DNA of 64,000 nucleotides from positions 5,794-69,793 of the IMG/VR virus record IMGVR_UViG_3300050821_016964. One strand, written 5' to 3'. Below are positions 4,846 through 37,456 of the stretch, in pieces (position 1 is the stretch's first letter; every line of letters starts with the position of its first letter). The translations under genes were made by a program, and so were the position numbers. A model generated the notes under the pieces. The model saw only the letters and a program-made list of their open reading frames with translations. It did not search any database and had not been told where the DNA came from. The DNA is from a virus.

Positions 4846-5940
4846 TCACAGTCGTGGAAGGTTCCACCACGCACGAAGGAACTCGGGAGGAAGCCCATTC
4901 AATTCAGGGCCTCGGAGATCCTGATACAGACTTCTCAGGACTGGGGATAGCGGTTCCCCTCGGAGCATCTGATTCGCAAAAGCCTCCGCCACAAACTCCC
5001 GTGGGTTCGTGGTTGCGTATTTGCCAAGATGCTGCTGGATTTGCTTCAGCGCTCCTGTTGGGATCGACACTCCAGGCATATAATTAGGCCAGTGATGCTC
5101 TTTCCAAGAATCTCCAAAATCACGTAAGTTCCGTCGTGATTGCCGATCCCACGCCGAGGTTCCTTTTGCCGGATTTCCAGAACCAGTCCATTCTCCTTGA
5201 AGAATCTGATCGTGAAAGGCGTGCCCGAGTTCGTGGATAGGCGTTTGATCCGCGCTGATTGGACCGGCCATTTCCCCTCGCCTGACACCCTTCCGGATGG
5301 ACTGCTCCATCAAGCTGGAATCTCCCCACTGATCAAGATTCAGGTTGGGCATGATGTGCGGGTCCATCGCTTTTCGAACCGGACCAGTCATATCTGGTCC
5401 CCGCATGGTCAGATTCCACGCCAGAGCATCGGGCTGGTAGACCGCAGAAACATCCTGGATGTCATCGGAGCTTCCAAATACCGCGCGCTGGTATTCGGGC
5501 TCGATGTTCAATTTTGCTGGTGATTTCTGAGCTAGCGCCTCGAATCTCCCCAACGGATTATCTTGCCGTCGGAGTAACTCCAGCGCTTCCGGATGGGCAA
5601 TCGCCCCCGACTCATCCCCCGCGAACCTGCCGATGGCCCTGGCGATCGGGTTGACGTCGTCGGCATGGGCCAGTGCCCGGGCGCCGCGGGTGGCACCCTG
5701 AATACCCTTGTACGCCCCAAGCGCCGGCCCCGCCAGGGCAAGCGGGTCCAGGATCATCTCGGCCCCGAAGCCTTTTGCCGCTCCCCACGGGTCGTTCTCG
5801 TCGCTGAGCCCGTACGCCGACAGCAGATCCTGACCACTCGCGCGCGAGCCGATGTTCCCCGCCAGAGCACCACGGAGGAGAGCACCTGGGGTGTCGAGGG
5901 CATAGCCGACGGAGCCAAGGGCGGAAATCAAAGGATTCAC
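4846..5940 (-). CDS. probable ejected virion protein with C-terminal HExxH zinc metallopeptidase-like domain
   Basis: TPIHELGHAFH...KYATTNPREFVAEAFA zincin motif; N-terminus resembles that of 1395..4661. Confidence 0.6.
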   Translation of the reverse strand: MNPLISALGSVGYALDTPGALLRGALAGNIGSRASGQDLLSAYGLSDENDPWGAAKGFGAEMILDPLALAGPALGAYKGIQGATRGARALAHADDVNPIARAIGRFAGDESGAIAHPEALELLRRQDNPLGRFEALAQKSPAKLNIEPEYQRAVFGSSDDIQDVSAVYQPDALAWNLTMRGPDMTGPVRKAMDPHIMPNLNLDQWGDSSLMEQSIRKGVRRGEMAGPISADQTPIHELGHAFHDQILQGEWTGSGNPAKGTSAWDRQSRRNLRDFGDSWKEHHWPNYMPGVSIPTGALKQIQQHLGKYATTNPREFVAEAFANQMLRGEPLSPVLRSLYQDLRGPELNGLPPEFLRAWWNLPRL

Positions 5941-6612: not shown

Positions 6613-8727
6613 TCAGTTGATCTTCCGGGCCGTCATGTAACTTCCCTTCAGCACCGAGTTGCTTTGCGTACTCGTGACGCTGGCGAACTGGAGTGTCACC
6701 GTACCGGCGTTCGAGCCGTTTGCGATATAGGCGTAGATATGGACACCACCCGTGAAAGCCACGGCGTTGATCATGTACGCCTGGCTTGGCGTCGAGAACG
6801 CCGTCTGGTTGTCGTCGCTGAAGACGGCGATACCCGTGGTGTTCCCAAACGTCGAGGTCGCGACTGTCGTCGGACTGGCTGGCCCGGTCAGTTGAAACGC
6901 CATGCCCCCAGTATCGCCGGTCGAACCCGTGCAGGTCAGGTGGAACTCGGCCGTCCAGATCTCGCCGGCCCCGATGGCGAACGAGAGCCCGGTCAGAGCA
7001 TTCGTGCCCTGGGTCGCCGAGGTCGTTGTCACCGTGCTCGTCAGCCCACCATAGGCCACCCCAGACGAGTACTTTGCCGACGACATCAAGCCGTAGGCCA
7101 CCATGGCCGCCGCAACATCACCAGACTGCTGACTGGCAAGCGAGCCACCGAAATAACTGATTTGAGGAGCACTTCCGCTCGTACCCCAACGAAACGCTTC
7201 ACGGCCACCTGAGGTTGCGTTGAAGTCCTGCGCCATCAGCCGGCCAAAGCCCGTATAACTCGCGTCGGTACTGACCGTGAAACCGGCGTCGAGATACGCC
7301 ACGTCGCGGGCGGTCGAGGTGCTGGAAATCCCCTGAAGATCAACAAGTGGGGCGGTCTGTGAAGTTCTGGCAAGAACAGTGACCGGCGTTACACTAGAAG
7401 TTGGAGCGCCGCACAGGATACCACCTGTTCCTGCTGGCTGATTCCAATCCAACCGAAAACCGACTATACCGGCTGACGCTGTCGCCACCCCGGAATTGCC
7501 ATTACCTGCAAACTGTAATGGCACTTGGCATCCAATTAGGTTGCCACTTGATGAAAAGACTGGCGTAGATATATTGGCAGTAATCGATAATGTTGTGCCA
7601 TCGAAAGTCAATAAGTTTGACGTGTTGACCACGCCAGAACCAGCGAACAATACTCCGTTGGACTGTCCCCCGCTGACCGTCGTCGTGCCGATTGTGATCC
7701 CACTGCTAGAGTTGGCCAGCACGAACGCGGTAGTAGCTAATTGAGTCGTGTTCGTGCCAACCGTCGCCGTGGGAGCTGTGGGAGTGCCGGTGAACGCAGG
7801 AGAGCCCAGTACAGCCAGCGTCCCCGTGGTTGCCGGAAGCGTCAGAGTACCGCTGGCTGTCGCGGAGGCCTGAAGCTCAGTCACGCCACTCGAAGAACCC
7901 GAGAGCCCGACCATGCCCGTGAACGTGGGACTGGCGATCGGAGCCAGAAGAGCGAGCGCTGCCGTAAGGCCGGTCACACCCGACTGGGGAATGGCTCCAA
8001 CGTAGGCCGCGGCAATCGCGGTCCCGTTCCAGACACCCGTCGTAATTGTGCCTACAGTGGCGATGTCACTTCCGACTAGTTTCGCCGCCGTGATCGAACC
8101 GGCCAGCATCGCGTTCGTGACCTGGGCGGCGCCGATCGTCGTCGTGATCGCCGTCGTGCCCGAGCCGGTCACATTACCGGAAAGCGTGATCGCCTGGTTC
8201 GCCGTCAAGAAACCCTGCGCGCCTACGTAAGTCTTCGTCGCGACGGTCGAGGACGTGAGGCCCGAGTCCAGGAACGCCCCGGCACCATCCGAGGCCTGAA
8301 TGGCTCCCGAGGCGCCGACGGAACTGCCACCACCCCCTCCTGAGCCATTAGCCGCGGCTGTGATCCGGCCCTTGCCGTCCACGGTGATATTAGCATTCGT
8401 GTAGCTACCGGCCGTCACTGCTGTCGCGGCCAGGGTAACCGCAATCGCCGTCGTGCCCGAGCCGGTGGCATCCCCCGAGAGCGTGACCGACTGATTCCCC
8501 GTGATAAATCCCTGGGCACCGACATAAGTCTTCGTGGCAAGAGTGCTTGTGGTCAGCCCGGAATCCACAAACAGACCGCTGCCGTTGGAGGCCTGGATTG
8601 CTCCTGAGGCGCCCACTGCCGAGCCCGCCGAAGCGCTGGCATTGATCACGGTGACCATGTTGCTGGCCAGATAGGGATTGGCCAGCGCATTCGATAATTG
8701 GGCCAGATCTTTTCCGTCGAGCTGCAT
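6613..8727 (-). CDS. fibre protein (Thr/Gly/Ser-rich, internal duplication)
   Basis: Motifs 'AGSYTNANITVDGKGRITAA' and 'SPAFTGTPTAPTA...NTTQLATTAFV' typical of phage fibres; two copies of VGASGAIQAS...TKTYVGAQGF...TLSG..TGSGTTAI. Confidence 0.75.
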   Translation of the reverse strand: MQLDGKDLAQLSNALANPYLASNMVTVINASASAGSAVGASGAIQASNGSGLFVDSGLTTSTLATKTYVGAQGFITGNQSVTLSGDATGSGTTAIAVTLAATAVTAGSYTNANITVDGKGRITAAANGSGGGGGSSVGASGAIQASDGAGAFLDSGLTSSTVATKTYVGAQGFLTANQAITLSGNVTGSGTTAITTTIGAAQVTNAMLAGSITAAKLVGSDIATVGTITTGVWNGTAIAAAYVGAIPQSGVTGLTAALALLAPIASPTFTGMVGLSGSSSGVTELQASATASGTLTLPATTGTLAVLGSPAFTGTPTAPTATVGTNTTQLATTAFVLANSSSGITIGTTTVSGGQSNGVLFAGSGVVNTSNLLTFDGTTLSITANISTPVFSSSGNLIGCQVPLQFAGNGNSGVATASAGIVGFRLDWNQPAGTGGILCGAPTSSVTPVTVLARTSQTAPLVDLQGISSTSTARDVAYLDAGFTVSTDASYTGFGRLMAQDFNATSGGREAFRWGTSGSAPQISYFGGSLASQQSGDVAAAMVAYGLMSSAKYSSGVAYGGLTSTVTTTSATQGTNALTGLSFAIGAGEIWTAEFHLTCTGSTGDTGGMAFQLTGPASPTTVATSTFGNTTGIAVFSDDNQTAFSTPSQAYMINAVAFTGGVHIYAYIANGSNAGTVTLQFASVTSTQSNSVLKGSYMTARKIN

Positions 8728-33707: not shown

Positions 33708-34148
33708 CTACAAAGGCCACCACCAGCGCAGGCCGGCGGCGTGATCAAAGAACTTCTGAGCATACGCCGCCCGCGTGGCCGCGTCCTTGGGCTCGGTCCC
33801 CGCAGGCACCAGGGCCGAGAAGGGCCCCGAGTACTTCTGGAAGAACGCCGCCTGCCGGGCCGTGGTCGCCGTCGTCTGGAGCGCGGCCAGAGCCGCCTCG
33901 ACGGTCCCTCCTGCCGCGATCACGTTCCCCGCCGCCGTGAAGCCGTCCGCTTCTGCGCTACACACGTCCGTCCGGTTCCGGTGCCCATCCCGGATCTCCG
34001 GCACATCGGTCCAGAAGAAACCGGCGACTCCGCGGTTGTCCCAGAGGACGACCAGGGAGAGCAGCACGATCACCACCCATTGCCAGTTAATGGACGTGGG
34101 CAGCGAGATGGCGAATCGGCGGCGGGTCGGAAACGAGATGTACGACAT
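33708..34148 (-). CDS. membrane-anchored hypothetical protein (start uncertain)
   Basis: TM segment WQWVVIVLLSLVVLW. Confidence 0.5.
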   Translation of the reverse strand: MSYISFPTRRRFAISLPTSINWQWVVIVLLSLVVLWDNRGVAGFFWTDVPEIRDGHRNRTDVCSAEADGFTAAGNVIAAGGTVEAALAALQTTATTARQAAFFQKYSGPFSALVPAGTEPKDAATRAAYAQKFFDHAAGLRWWWPL

Positions 34149-34641
34149 GCGGCTTTTCCTTCGGCGCTTTCGACTCATGGTGACGCACCACGGGTGAAGG
34201 GGCAAGACCCGCCGGCGCGGCCGCAGCGACCGCCGAAGTCATTGCAGCCGGCGCCGGCAGGATGGGTACGGGGTCCGGCGCGACTGACGCCTGTGTACCT
34301 CCAGGCATCACGGTTACGCCGAAGTACCCGTATCCCTTGTAGCCGATCGCGTCGGTCACGATCACGGAGACGACGTAGTTTCCAGGCACCGCATAAACGT
34401 GTTCCAGATCGAAGGATTGACCCTGAAGGCCAAGCGCCTCTGATCCTGAGCCGTCGCCGTAGTCGACAGTGGCTGTGCAGGAGCTTGGGGCTGGGTCGGT
34501 GAAGACTCCGGCCCGGCAGAATTCTCCGGGCGTGATGATGGCGTTGATTCCGGCATCGACCACCGGGGGGATAGGTTCGATCAGCGGTGCCAGGAGACTC
34601 CGGCACTCAAGCCGATCGAAGGTGAGGGGACGAATCTTCAA
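34087..34641 (-). CDS. PKD-domain protein with planctomycete LEPR-XLL-like motif
   Basis: 'RPLTFDRLECRSLLA'; 'TATVDYGDGSG...HVYAVPGNYVVSVIVTD'. Confidence 0.75.
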   Translation of the reverse strand: MKIRPLTFDRLECRSLLAPLIEPIPPVVDAGINAIITPGEFCRAGVFTDPAPSSCTATVDYGDGSGSEALGLQGQSFDLEHVYAVPGNYVVSVIVTDAIGYKGYGYFGVTVMPGGTQASVAPDPVPILPAPAAMTSAVAAAAPAGLAPSPVVRHHESKAPKEKPHVVHLVSDPPPIRHLAAHVH

Positions 34642-34644
34642 GAG

Positions 34645-34743
34645 TGTCTCCGGTGGGATTCAAACCCACAGACACGGTGCCTTGCGTTCCTATCTACCCG
34701 CGGCATTTCGCGTCGGCCTTTTGAGAACGGGCACTTCAGAGAC
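34645..34743 (-). ncRNA. tRNA-like structured RNA (acceptor stem and T-arm, no D/anticodon arm)
   Basis: GTCTCTG/CGGAGAC+A acceptor, GTGGG-TTTGAAT-CCCAC T-arm, central GTGCC/GGCAC and CGTTC/GAACG helices. Confidence 0.5.
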
Positions 34744-34811
34744 GCCGCATTTCCGTGGACCGCAACCCACTAGGGCGCGTGCTCTCTTCGCTGAGCGGCA
34801 GAGACAGAGAC

Positions 34812-34840
34812 AGCCTACCACGATTCTCCCAGATGTGCAA
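34812..34840 (-). promoter_or_regulatory. sigma70-type promoter TTGCAC-N17-TAGGCT (extended -10)
   Basis: Exact 17-nt spacing; same GTGGTAGGCT as the promoter at 40813-40822. Confidence 0.6.
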
Positions 34841-34845
34841 ACGAC

Positions 34846-34947
34846 GTCGCCCGGCACTTCCGAGAAGCACCGAGCGACAGAGGGATCGTACGCGACCTAC
34901 AAGTCCATCAAGTTTCAATCCGCCCCCAGAGTTAAATCCAGGGGAAC
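34846..34947 (-). CRISPR. mini-CRISPR unit A: one repeat, 33-nt terminase-derived spacer, hairpin
   Basis: Repeat 34912-34947 = GTTCCCCTGGATTTAACTCTGGGGGCGGATTGAAAC; spacer 34879-34911; 15-bp hairpin 34846-34878 that pairs fully (G-U) only on the minus strand. Confidence 0.8.
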
Positions 34948-34949
34948 TC

Positions 34950-34978
34950 ATTCTCTCAATAACCACAAATTAGGTCAA
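34950..34978 (-). promoter_or_regulatory. promoter of mini-CRISPR unit A, TTGACC-N17-GAGAAT
   Basis: 17-nt spacing, TGn extension, abuts the repeat; -35 overlaps terL stop. Confidence 0.65.
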
Positions 34979-36732
34979 GCCAGAGTCACCCCCCGCTTGT
35001 CGCCGCCCTGCTTGCGTGCCCATGCCTTCTCCGCTGCTTTAATACTTTTGTACGTCGCGTACGAACCCTCTTGACTCTTCTTGTGCGCGAGCTTGGGCTT
35101 GTGGTAGTATAAACCAGTGTACATACACAGATAGCCTAGATTATCACATTGGTGGCTGTCCTTCGCCAGCGGCTTGTCTGTCACCTCACCGGCAACGACC
35201 TTGAACGCGTACCGCTCCATGTTGCGCACCAGGTGCGGGCAGGAGCCGCGGAGAATCCGGATCTTGGTGGTCCCGTCAGGCCGCACCCGGAGCCAGTCCT
35301 TGATCCGCAGAATGCGGCCCGTGGGATCATCGTACCCGTAAGTCAGCATCGTGCCACAGGTAGGCGTGCGGATCTTGAGCGTCTTGAACGCGTTCCGGTA
35401 CTGGGTCTCGGGCAGCATGCCGGAGCCGAGCTCACGCAGGTTCCCCCCGTGCGAGTCGAACAGGTGGGCATACATCTCCAGGTCGCCGATGTGGTCCTTC
35501 AGGGCCTGGGCTAAGAGCGCCGCATCGCAGCCCCGGATGTACGCTTCGTCGTAGAAGTACACGTAGTCGCCGTAGAGTAGGGGGTCCACCCCTGGCGTGC
35601 CGTCGTACTTCATGGGCGGGACAGCACAGAAGAGGAGCGCGCCGACCTTGAACCCGGGATCGATCGAGCAGAAGTGGCACCAGGACATGGGGATCGCGAA
35701 CGGCTCGACACCATGGACGCCGCGGGGGAAGAAGTGGCTCTCGAAGACGCGGGTGCCCGAGATCGCGAAGTCGCCGTCGATCCGGAGCCGGCGATCGTCG
35801 TCGGTCAGGCTGCTCTCGAAGTCTCGCTTGGCCCGCTCGGGCATGTGGACGTTGTCCCAGATCGACAGGAAGAACTCCTGCACCAAGGGCGTGGACGTGT
35901 CCCCCGTCTCCGCCTGCTCCTCGGCGATCGCCCCCGCCCGCTGGTGGAGCTCGAAGAGCGCCTGCGTCCCGACGTGCGGGGTGGCGCCCCACCAGAAGAA
36001 ACCGTTGCGGTCAATCAGGCGCGCCATCGCCTCGGTAAACCATCCTTCGTTCACTACCTCCTCGTCAAAAATACATATGTCGACATCTACACCCGAGATT
36101 GCTTCGGGGTCCGCCTTGGACGAGTAAAAATTGCACTCCCACCCGTTCTTGAGGACCAGTTTGGTAGGAATCCCCGCCGCCTTCTTCTCCCACGAGATGT
36201 CCTTGATCAGCCGGGGGGGGATCAGGGGAGGCGCGGGCTTGCCCCGGCCCAGGTCCCCGGGTCGCCGGGCACGCCAGACCTTCGTGGCCGGGTCCCGGAT
36301 CATCTGGAACGAGCCGGCCCGGCCGAGCTTGCGCCAGATGACCTCGCCGATCTTGTTCATGTCCCGCGCAACGACGATGGCCCGGCCGTTCTCCCGCGGG
36401 TACTTGTCCGGGTTCGGGTGCATCCCCGTCATCGCCCAGCCGAGCTCGATCATCGAACTGGTCGTCTTGCCCGAGCGGTTCGAGCCGATCGCGACCCGCT
36501 GCCTGGCCATCGAGTTGTGGAACGCCCACTGAGCCGGCATCGGCTCGTAGATCCGCAAGGCCTCGCACTGGCGCCGCTCCAGCTCCAGGAGCATCGCCCG
36601 GACCCGGGCCACCTCCGTCGGCGCCAGCGTCCCCCCCTCGCCAGGGAGATGCAGCCCCGCGTTCTCCAGGACGACCGGATCGAATGCCCCGTGCCGGTGC
36701 CGCGGACCCCCGATATTCCGCCGCTCGGGCAT
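34975..36732 (-). CDS. terL: terminase large subunit
   Basis: Walker A GSNRSGKT, Walker B ICIFDEE, 'WGATP', nuclease 'SIDPG' and 'SHQCDNLGY'. Confidence 0.93.
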   Translation of the reverse strand: MPERRNIGGPRHRHGAFDPVVLENAGLHLPGEGGTLAPTEVARVRAMLLELERRQCEALRIYEPMPAQWAFHNSMARQRVAIGSNRSGKTTSSMIELGWAMTGMHPNPDKYPRENGRAIVVARDMNKIGEVIWRKLGRAGSFQMIRDPATKVWRARRPGDLGRGKPAPPLIPPRLIKDISWEKKAAGIPTKLVLKNGWECNFYSSKADPEAISGVDVDICIFDEEVVNEGWFTEAMARLIDRNGFFWWGATPHVGTQALFELHQRAGAIAEEQAETGDTSTPLVQEFFLSIWDNVHMPERAKRDFESSLTDDDRRLRIDGDFAISGTRVFESHFFPRGVHGVEPFAIPMSWCHFCSIDPGFKVGALLFCAVPPMKYDGTPGVDPLLYGDYVYFYDEAYIRGCDAALLAQALKDHIGDLEMYAHLFDSHGGNLRELGSGMLPETQYRNAFKTLKIRTPTCGTMLTYGYDDPTGRILRIKDWLRVRPDGTTKIRILRGSCPHLVRNMERYAFKVVAGEVTDKPLAKDSHQCDNLGYLCMYTGLYYHKPKLAHKKSQEGSYATYKSIKAAEKAWARKQGGDKRGVTLA

Positions 36733-37296: not shown

Positions 37297-37319
37297 GGCG
37301 CCCAGTCTACCAGAGGCGC

Positions 37320-37362
37320 AAAAACACGGCCAGCCTCCCCCGCGCGACTGGGAAAGGCTGGC
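37320..37362 (-). terminator. intrinsic terminator closing CRISPR-derived unit B
   Basis: GCCAGCC...GGCTGGC stem followed by GTGTTTTT on minus strand. Confidence 0.65.
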
Positions 37363-37387
37363 TGTGCGAACTGCGTCCCTTGGAGAA

Positions 37388-37424
37388 GTTTCAATCCGCC
37401 CCCGACGGTGAGGCCGGGGGAGAG
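37388..37424 (-). CRISPR. solitary CRISPR repeat (unit B)
   Basis: CTCTCCCCCGGCCTCACCGTCGGGGGCGGATTGAAAC, 37 nt, internal hairpin; last 16 nt identical to the unit A repeat. Confidence 0.8.
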
Positions 37425-37427
37425 CAC

Positions 37428-37456
37428 ACTATGCCCGAGCCTCAGGGCATCGTCAA
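37428..37456 (-). promoter_or_regulatory. promoter of unit B, TTGACG-N17-CATAGT, containing inverted repeat ATGCCC-N8-GGGCAT
   Basis: 17-nt spacing, abuts the repeat as in unit A. Confidence 0.6.

Follow-up and report, generated by a model that had tools for sequence, protein, structure and literature searches.

What is the role of a solitary CRISPR-type repeat that stands just behind the large terminase subunit gene (terL) of a soil phage, directly ahead of a near copy of the end of that same gene? The question is raised by the IMG/VR virus record IMGVR_UViG_3300050821_016964 (69,793 bp, rated complete by CheckV), in which a window of 64,000 nucleotides (positions 5,794 to 69,793 of the record) was analyzed; all coordinates below are those of the window. 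The terL gene (34975-36732, minus strand) is followed on the same strand, after a gap of ~335 nt, by a gene with a PKD domain (34087-34641), and the element in question, named unit 1, was located inside this gap. Unit 1 is very probably a CRISPR-derived repeat-plus-spacer unit. We proposed that it acts as a phage-borne, cas-less, single-repeat type I-C CRISPR RNA (crRNA) gene used as an interviral weapon against sibling phages, and a probability of roughly 0.45 was assigned to this proposal.

Along the minus strand, the gap contained a promoter-like site, one 36-nt repeat, a 33-nt segment and a 15-bp hairpin, in the positions given by the original prediction made from the letters alone. The promoter-like site (34950-34978, TTGACC-17 nt-GAGAAT, with a TG before the second hexamer) overlapped the terL stop codon, its -10 element ended 2 nt before the repeat, and it was the sole such site found by the consensus scan in 2 kb (0.3 expected); being a consensus match alone, it represents a predicted promoter and not a mapped transcript start. 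A promoter inside the repeat tail (TTGAAA) was considered by eye and dropped, because start codons directly follow some units of this kind. The solitary repeat GTTCCCCTGGATTTAACTCTGGGGGCGGATTGAAAC (34912-34947) was present in one copy in the window and in one copy in the complete record. It was folded into an 8-bp stem with a 6-nt loop, followed by an 11-nt tail CGGATTGAAAC, and the stem ended 11 nt ahead of the guide. The Rfam model CRISPR-DR9 matched the repeat over its full length at a sub-threshold score (18.9 bits, gathering score 45). The 33-nt guide, or spacer, TTGATGGACTTGTAGGTCGCGTACGATCCCTCT (34879-34911) was antisense to terL, and the hairpin directly 3' of it (34846-34878, z -2.97) contained three G-U pairs, which made it specific to the minus-strand RNA.

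The guide comes from a terL allele that codes for the same peptide as the tail of the phage's own TerL protein. The plus strand of the guide segment was the reverse complement of a site within terL (35039-35071, plus-strand sequence TTAATACTTTTGTACGTCGCGTACGAACCCTCT) at 26 of 33 positions, and both 33-mers read EGSYATYKSI in the terL frame, the reverse complement of the guide encoding this peptide plus AA. All seven differences were synonymous, including a TCC/AGT serine switch; this part of the original prediction was reproduced by direct comparison. When seven substitutions were placed at random, the peptide was preserved in 8 of 2,000,000 trials, and the next-best 33-mer matches in the whole record reached at most 20/33. 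Since the differences were synonymous only, both 33-mers diverged under the same coding constraint, and a local inverted duplication with later drift was thereby excluded. The 15-nt flanks of the pair matched at just 3/15 and 1/15; hence, the likeness was guide-sized, exactly 33 nt long, starting at the last repeat base and bounded by the repeat and the hairpin. A pseudogene fragment of a second terL was rejected, because the likeness was confined to 33 nt both in DNA and in protein. An open reading frame (ORF) on the plus strand (34469-35074), which crosses the guide and the repeat in the EGSYATYKSIK frame, was also rejected as a gene; its G+C content at third codon positions (GC3) was 0.63 compared to 0.86 in terL.

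An inverted repeat of this kind might act with no Cas protein involved. In a transcript that runs on past terL, the 33-mer would then pair with the terL 3' end, forming an RNase III site or a 3' stabilizer, or else the small RNA would work as a Cas-free antisense regulator of terL mRNA. A long-range stem was indeed observed in both the minimum-energy and the centroid structures of 34835-35085 (-104.9 kcal/mol, z -5.43), but such a stem follows by construction from the inverted repeat and is weakened by five mismatches. Neither the host CRISPR repeat placed exactly beside the 33-mer nor the synonymous-only differences between the arms are explained in this way, and the nearest relative with available DNA had no such element. 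We therefore regarded a cis-acting or antisense RNA as very improbable.

The repeat itself was traced to Gemmataceae (Planctomycetota). An 18-base part of it occurred in 15 stretches of species-representative genomes, nine of them from Planctomycetota, and seven of the nine had the full hairpin-plus-tail form; these seven were solitary copies, except for one locus with three close copies (two of them exact). A covariance model was built of 13 hairpin-plus-tail units, including unit 1 and a second unit of the same phage (unit 2, described below), the scores of the two phage units following by construction. In five of the source genomes, the model revealed true arrays with a period of ~72 nt, containing 36 repeats in G003 and 48, 10 and 4 in G005. 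Pattern searches independent of the model were performed in 252 Gemmataceae genomes. Outside the loop, unit 1 was matched with at most two mismatches in 9 of these genomes, with arrays in three (G618 with 67 repeats, G003, and G415 with 9), and it differed from the G618 array repeat at one of 27 specified positions. The unit 2 repeat differed at one of 34 positions from the array repeat of one genome of the 252, G438 (13 repeats). The array of G003 was preceded by cas3, cas8c, cas7, cas4 and cas1c (NCBIfam Cas3, Cas8c/Csd1, Cas7/Csd2, Cas4 and Cas1c), Cas5d adjoined the arrays in four of the five array-bearing genomes (G003, G005, G415, G438 and G618), and Cas7/Csd2 adjoined the array of G438. 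Thus, a match to planctomycetal arrays, suggested earlier as a check, was obtained beside type I-C cas genes. As the repeat is that of Gemmataceae type I-C systems, a member of the Gemmataceae is the likely host of the phage.

The use of the guide by a type III system, which had also been suggested, found no support: the arrays lay beside I-C genes, and the Cas6 model TIGR01877 gave no match in the five array-bearing genomes, which are incomplete (controls were positive in 6 of 14), though Cmr2 was found in two of the five, on contigs other than those of the arrays. The cas-less anatomy was supported, as the six type I-C Cas proteins of G003 gave no match in the 69,793-bp record (tblastn, E up to 0.1; other cas families were not searched). 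An 8-nt handle had been expected on the processed RNA. However, type I-C Cas5c leaves an 11-nt 5' handle and is sensitive to the 3' overhang near the cleavage site, and BhaCas5c recognizes mainly three nucleotides just downstream of the cut, tolerating changes of the loop and the 5' overhang (PMC8524198). The repeats of the family were 36-37 nt long and had the same stem base and 11-nt tail, varying in the loop and the 5' overhang. As the variable parts are those tolerated by BhaCas5c and the tail is kept, this pattern was counted in favor of a guide gene.

Based on this anatomy, the following sequence of events was proposed. The RNA of unit 1 would be transcribed from its own promoter, host Cas5c would cleave the repeat at the foot of its stem on the 3' side, so that the guide keeps the 11-nt handle CGGAUUGAAAC, and the 3' hairpin would replace the absent downstream repeat. 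Host Cascade carrying the guide, together with Cas3, would then destroy co-infecting siblings whose terL has the guide-type codons. The guide was mismatched to the self site at positions 3, 6, 7, 8, 9, 15 and 27, in agreement with the five mismatches noted earlier at positions 3 and 6-9, and the self copy is consequently mismatched in the seed. The carrier would be spared by the mismatches at 3, 7, 8 and 9 (seed) and also at 6, 15 and 27, and by the GCT triplet in the place of the protospacer-adjacent motif (PAM).

Which phage could have supplied the guide was approached through TerL (585 aa; Pfam Terminase_6N, E 1.3e-4; PHROG phrog_2, E 3.2e-19). There were 172 homologues among 8000 scored candidates. 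The closest relatives (75, 70, 71, 69 and 61% identity) were reached as proteins only, without DNA, and GenBank phage terminases showed 25-26% identity. TerL matched none of 401 Planctomycetota genomes and one of the 252 Gemmataceae genomes (42% identity). A similar peptide, (E/Q)GS(Y/F)A(T/L)Y(K/N)SI(K/L)A, was kept only in the closest TerL clade; hence, a donor with an identical peptide and a 21% base difference should be a close sibling. In soil run X4, which also holds the phage, a 151-nt contig over 36218-36368 had 9 differences from terL (~94% alike), and 5 of the 7 differences listed were at third codon positions. This contig, which does not cover the target site, probably represents a sibling strain in the same soil, and synonymously diverged siblings may co-occur there.

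A number of findings have to be set against the proposed weapon. The first concerns the PAM. The three bases preceding the self site on the plus strand (35036-35038) were GCT, as noted in the original prediction, and correspond, on the complementary strand, to the last base of the Lys565 codon together with the first two of the Ala566 codon. Ala566 was invariant in the six closest TerL proteins. If it is kept in the donor as well, the PAM position there should read GCY and not the TTC that had been expected, when published type I-C target sites are TTC or TTA (10.1101/2024.12.27.630466). GCY argues against canonical interference, although a donor with another residue at 566, or systems reading another PAM, would remove the objection. 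The PAM of the Gemmataceae systems is not derivable from their own spacers, since the 180 host spacers of the five genomes revealed no protospacer in the phage or in the viral loci compared. The best matches were 14 and 17 nt, and the 17-nt match was rejected as a protospacer, being G+C-rich and 26/35 overall.

The form of the unit was the second point. The covariance model found no other repeat near unit 1 at E up to 10, and a degenerate repeat downstream was not detected by local alignment, which scored no better than shuffles (1060 and 1659 of 2000 reached the observed score). With only one repeat, ordinary spacer acquisition cannot have left unit 1 as it is without a later loss. Further, the host spacers were 33-39 nt long and 10 of the 180 measured 33 nt, which placed the guide at the short end of the range. 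A partial self-match of a guide might also provoke primed adaptation against the carrier, as type I systems are capable of priming.

The third point was the target. The pattern of all synonymous forms of the peptide had no match in viral contigs, and a looser pattern gave four matches, all of them unrelated. When the TerL protein alone served as the query, no close relative was recovered among viral or metagenome contigs. An alignment of the six nearest TerL proteins reached one contig at 60% and one at 54% identity; the former encoded EGSYALYKSIL and had no unit after terL. Nothing near terL or the guide was found in GenBank phages, and in viral contigs, metagenome contigs and GenBank phages no match to the guide was better than the carrier's own 26/33, when near-perfect matches in related terL genes had been predicted. 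No TerL was found in L002, another IMG/VR contig with the repeat 18-mer. The proposed weapon is thus argued from sequence, which is reflected in the probability given above.

Unit 1 could also be a relic, that is, a remnant of a mini-array or a captured piece of a host array whose guide has no living target or function. The absent downstream repeat and the lack of a target in every collection searched fit such an origin, as does the hairpin, which had no T-run and was not recognized as a terminator by the terminator scan. Decay, however, is not seen in the repeat stem and the 11-nt tail, which are intact, or in the promoter-like site, which is well placed. Additionally, unit 1 was identical (0 differences) in contigs of soil runs X1 and X4, which come from different studies, although maybe from one campaign. 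A relic was therefore considered improbable. As for coverage, a 151-nt contig of run X1 over unit 1 was shallower than its neighbors, but contig depth is not rankable and was not used; in RNA run X6 no contig spanned unit 1, and since contigs cannot reveal small RNAs, nothing follows from it.

The fourth point was the company of unit 1. Unit 2 was found on the minus strand, 2,476 nt upstream of unit 1, and the two units bracket a 167-aa ORF and terL. It consisted of a promoter-like site (37428-37456, TTGACG-17 nt-CATAGT), a solitary repeat CTCTCCCCCGGCCTCACCGTCGGGGGCGGATTGAAAC (37388-37424), a guide-like stretch of 25 nt (37363-37387) and an intrinsic terminator with a 13-pair stem, an 8-nt loop and a T-run (37319-37362), the predicted product being ~50 nt. 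The 25-nt stretch had no match in the phage genome or in the viral and host loci compared. The same repeat family was represented by 15 solitary units in 9 other IMG/VR contigs, several of them 0-20 nt before a start codon, and none of the 15 had a second match in the viral loci compared. In this phage group, solitary units would thus mostly act without the need of a phage-derived spacer.

Both units could accordingly be anti-CRISPR RNAs, either solitary-repeat decoys of the Racr kind or crRNA-like regulators of the Cracr kind, which would sequester host Cas5c/Cas7 or guide Cascade to the promoter of a host cas or defense gene. The terL-derived 33-mer would then be incidental, for example recombined from an array that once targeted the phage lineage. 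The presence of two separate units, each with a promoter-like site and a 3' hairpin or terminator, agrees with such a function. So do the solitary copies in other viral contigs, as well as the short guide-like stretch and the near-exact host repeat of unit 2, whose ~50-nt product resembles the type I-C crRNA-like RNAs (crlRNAs) of 49-50 nt (10.1101/2024.12.27.630466). A type I-C Racr, RacrIC1, was shown to work (PMC10651486), and viral units in which one repeat is followed by a spacer-like stretch and a terminator are described as type V-A Cracr (10.1101/2024.10.29.618823). In the host genome G003, a solitary unit with its own terminator was located between cas3 and cas5c, like the published type I-C crlRNA genes. 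On the other hand, a 33-nt segment derived from coding sequence and exactly bounded is nothing that a decoy requires. In 190,318 bases of host loci, no match was found to the opening 10, 11 or 12 nt of either guide, a weak test as the real host locus is not among them, and no known acr gene was recognized next to the units by PHROG, or by Pfam for the two ORFs nearest unit 2. Taken by comparison of the parts, unit 2 would fit the Racr/Cracr classes, and unit 1 would do so only if its terL-derived guide is incidental. For the pair as a whole this explanation was judged doubtful, though more credible than a relic. Ten nucleotides of the L002 guide recurred in host locus L021, but 0.36 matches of this kind are expected by chance, and the match was discarded.

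Solitary units were also encountered elsewhere. In an unrelated phage lineage (L048, L054, L055 and L047/L049) a repeat unit stood 3 nt before the start of the small terminase subunit gene terS (Pfam Terminase_2), and a second unit followed 2,512 nt further, past the terminase genes, with ~27 nt and a terminator behind it, a layout as in the window. These units were at 822-855 and 3334-3367 of L048 and at 1581-1614 and 4093-4126 of L054. Positions 1-3367 of L048 and 760-4126 of L054 agreed at 99.8% as far as the final base of the second repeat and had nothing in common beyond it over 11.5 kb, L057 being part of the same comparison. The second repeat either marks a mosaic junction or is where an assembly chimera was joined. 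In Planctomycetota genomes (L007, L009, L011, L012, L016, L017 and L018, the last at 8625-8667) solitary units were often positioned just before start codons, and several had one or two further copies of the final 9-11 repeat bases behind them. The repeat model matched 8 times in G001, 2 times in G002 and 11 times in G004; none of the matches listed formed an array, and no type I-C cas7 was found in these three, maybe incomplete, genomes. Repeats like that of unit 2 (window 37388-37423) were also seen in soil contigs: twice in DNA contigs of runs X4 and X5, with 35 and 37 bases between the copies, and once, with 2 differences, in a contig of RNA run X6. They have the appearance of CRISPR arrays from other organisms that live in these soils.

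If unit 1 is a weapon, it may be asked whether the phage has changed its own allele in response. It had been claimed that the spacer keeps genome-typical G/C-ending codons, when the self copy was recoded toward A/T. The GC3 of terL was 86.5%, and the seed end of the self copy reads AAA AGT ATT AAA GCA, five A/T-ending codons that include two of the three AAA codons of terL (compared to 29 AAG), where the guide has AAG TCC ATC. The claim was thus sustained for Lys, Ser and Ile, and failed for Gly (GGA versus GGT) and Thr (ACC versus ACG), for which neither copy was more codon-typical. Runs of at least four A/T-ending codons were clustered in terL: three runs were present, a number reached in 5 of 20,000 shuffles. 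The two further runs (36067-36093 and 35110-35151, codons 214-222 and 528-541) lie over conserved motifs of TerL and are not known to be linked to any guide. The single relative with available DNA reads AAA TCG ATC at the site, which leaves the direction of change undecided. A change of the self allele by escape selection is possible, and a spacer taken from an already diverged sibling would explain the data equally well, so that the recoding of the phage's own allele stands unproven.

In its strongest form, the idea of recoding would make the guide and the carrier's own terL allele a tightly linked poison-antidote pair, the self allele having been driven by selection to A/T-ending codons. The A/T-ending codons at the seed/PAM end would render the carrier immune, when the guide would kill siblings that keep the ancestral codons. 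Type I-C units flanking terminase genes would then serve Gemmataceae phages generally as a means to use or disarm host Cascade. We considered this extension unlikely.

Searches for tRNA, tmRNA and Rfam families over the window gave none at gathering scores. PHROG recognized none of the ORFs beside units 1 and 2, and Pfam recognized neither of the two closest to unit 2 that it was also run on. A 208-nt soil metatranscriptome contig matched 34600-34778 with 0 differences and extended ~29 nt further left; it spans the start region of the PKD-domain gene, and DNA carry-over is possible. A sub-threshold likeness to the RAGATH-5 RNA motif was recorded at 34479-34529 on the minus strand (24.1 bits, gathering score 50, E 0.14).

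Should the proposed weapon prove real, CRISPR-mediated conflict between viruses would extend beyond archaeal viruses and reach soil phages of Planctomycetota, type I-C systems, and a minimal gene made of one repeat, one guide and a hairpin. The guide and its self copy, with synonymous-only differences, form a natural experiment on the mismatches that protect a carrier from its own guide. The solitary type I-C repeats before phage and host genes and at the ends of terminase modules suggest roles beyond arrays and decoys. No paper on such units was among the 10 top-ranked of 28 obtained in a literature search on type I-C CRISPR and planctomycetal phages, though the supplementary lists of the published solitary repeat unit (SRU) and Cracr studies may hold some.

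Several known systems are close to unit 1, among them the virus-borne mini-arrays. They target close relatives, and mutated self loci and targets near the array were described for them (PMC6858448; review PMC11656645). In the mini-arrays of the Saccharolobus portogloboviruses SPV1 and SPV2, as in unit 1, a host-type repeat is provided with a promoter and no cas genes are carried (in unit 1, as judged by the six I-C proteins searched). The spacer of SPV1/SPV2 corresponds to a gene of closely related viruses, the orthologous locus of the carrier is mutated, and the targeted region is near the array (PMC6858448). The mutated self locus and the closeness of the target, presented earlier as new, had therefore already been stated for these viruses. 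In contrast to SPV1/SPV2, where repeats flank one or two spacers, unit 1 has one repeat and a 3' hairpin instead of the second, and at least two repeats, a feature of mini-arrays, were found in neither unit of the phage. SPV1 and SPV2 carry 100% matches to each other, whereas a target virus of unit 1 was not found. Also unlike them, unit 1 belongs to a soil phage of bacteria (Gemmataceae) and to a type I-C repeat family.

The Racr elements, including RacrIC1, share with unit 1 a solitary host-like repeat directly after a predicted promoter and the lack of cas genes (PMC10651486). Unit 1 differs by its full-length phage-derived guide, which a decoy does not need, and unit 2 fits Racr better. 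The type I-C solitary repeat units give, from a single repeat, Cascade-dependent RNAs of 49-50 nt that begin with an 11-nt handle and end within the loop of the 3' hairpin (10.1101/2024.12.27.630466); the layout of one repeat, guide and 3' hairpin is the same in unit 1, the guide of which is full-length. Viral crRNA-like RNAs (Cracr) silence host cas promoters (10.1101/2024.10.29.618823). Similarly to unit 1, the crlRNA/Cracr genes combine a single repeat with a guide and end in a 3' hairpin or terminator; their RNA needs host Cascade and is expected to carry an 11-nt handle. Their guides are complementary to host promoters, such as those of cas or toxin genes, over ~9 or more bases at the PAM-proximal end, next to TTC/TTA. 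The partner of unit 1, in contrast, is a structural gene of the phage; the self match lies at the PAM-distal end, and the self site is preceded by GCT. Finally, the type I-C arrays of Gemmataceae (G003, G005, G415, G438 and G618) have a 36-37-nt repeat with the same stem base and 11-nt tail as unit 1, which, unlike them, is solitary and phage-borne and has a different loop, ATTTAACT. Compared with all these systems, what is new is a type I-C unit of one repeat that carries a full-length guide of phage origin, together with the group of hosts and the position of two units around the terminase genes.

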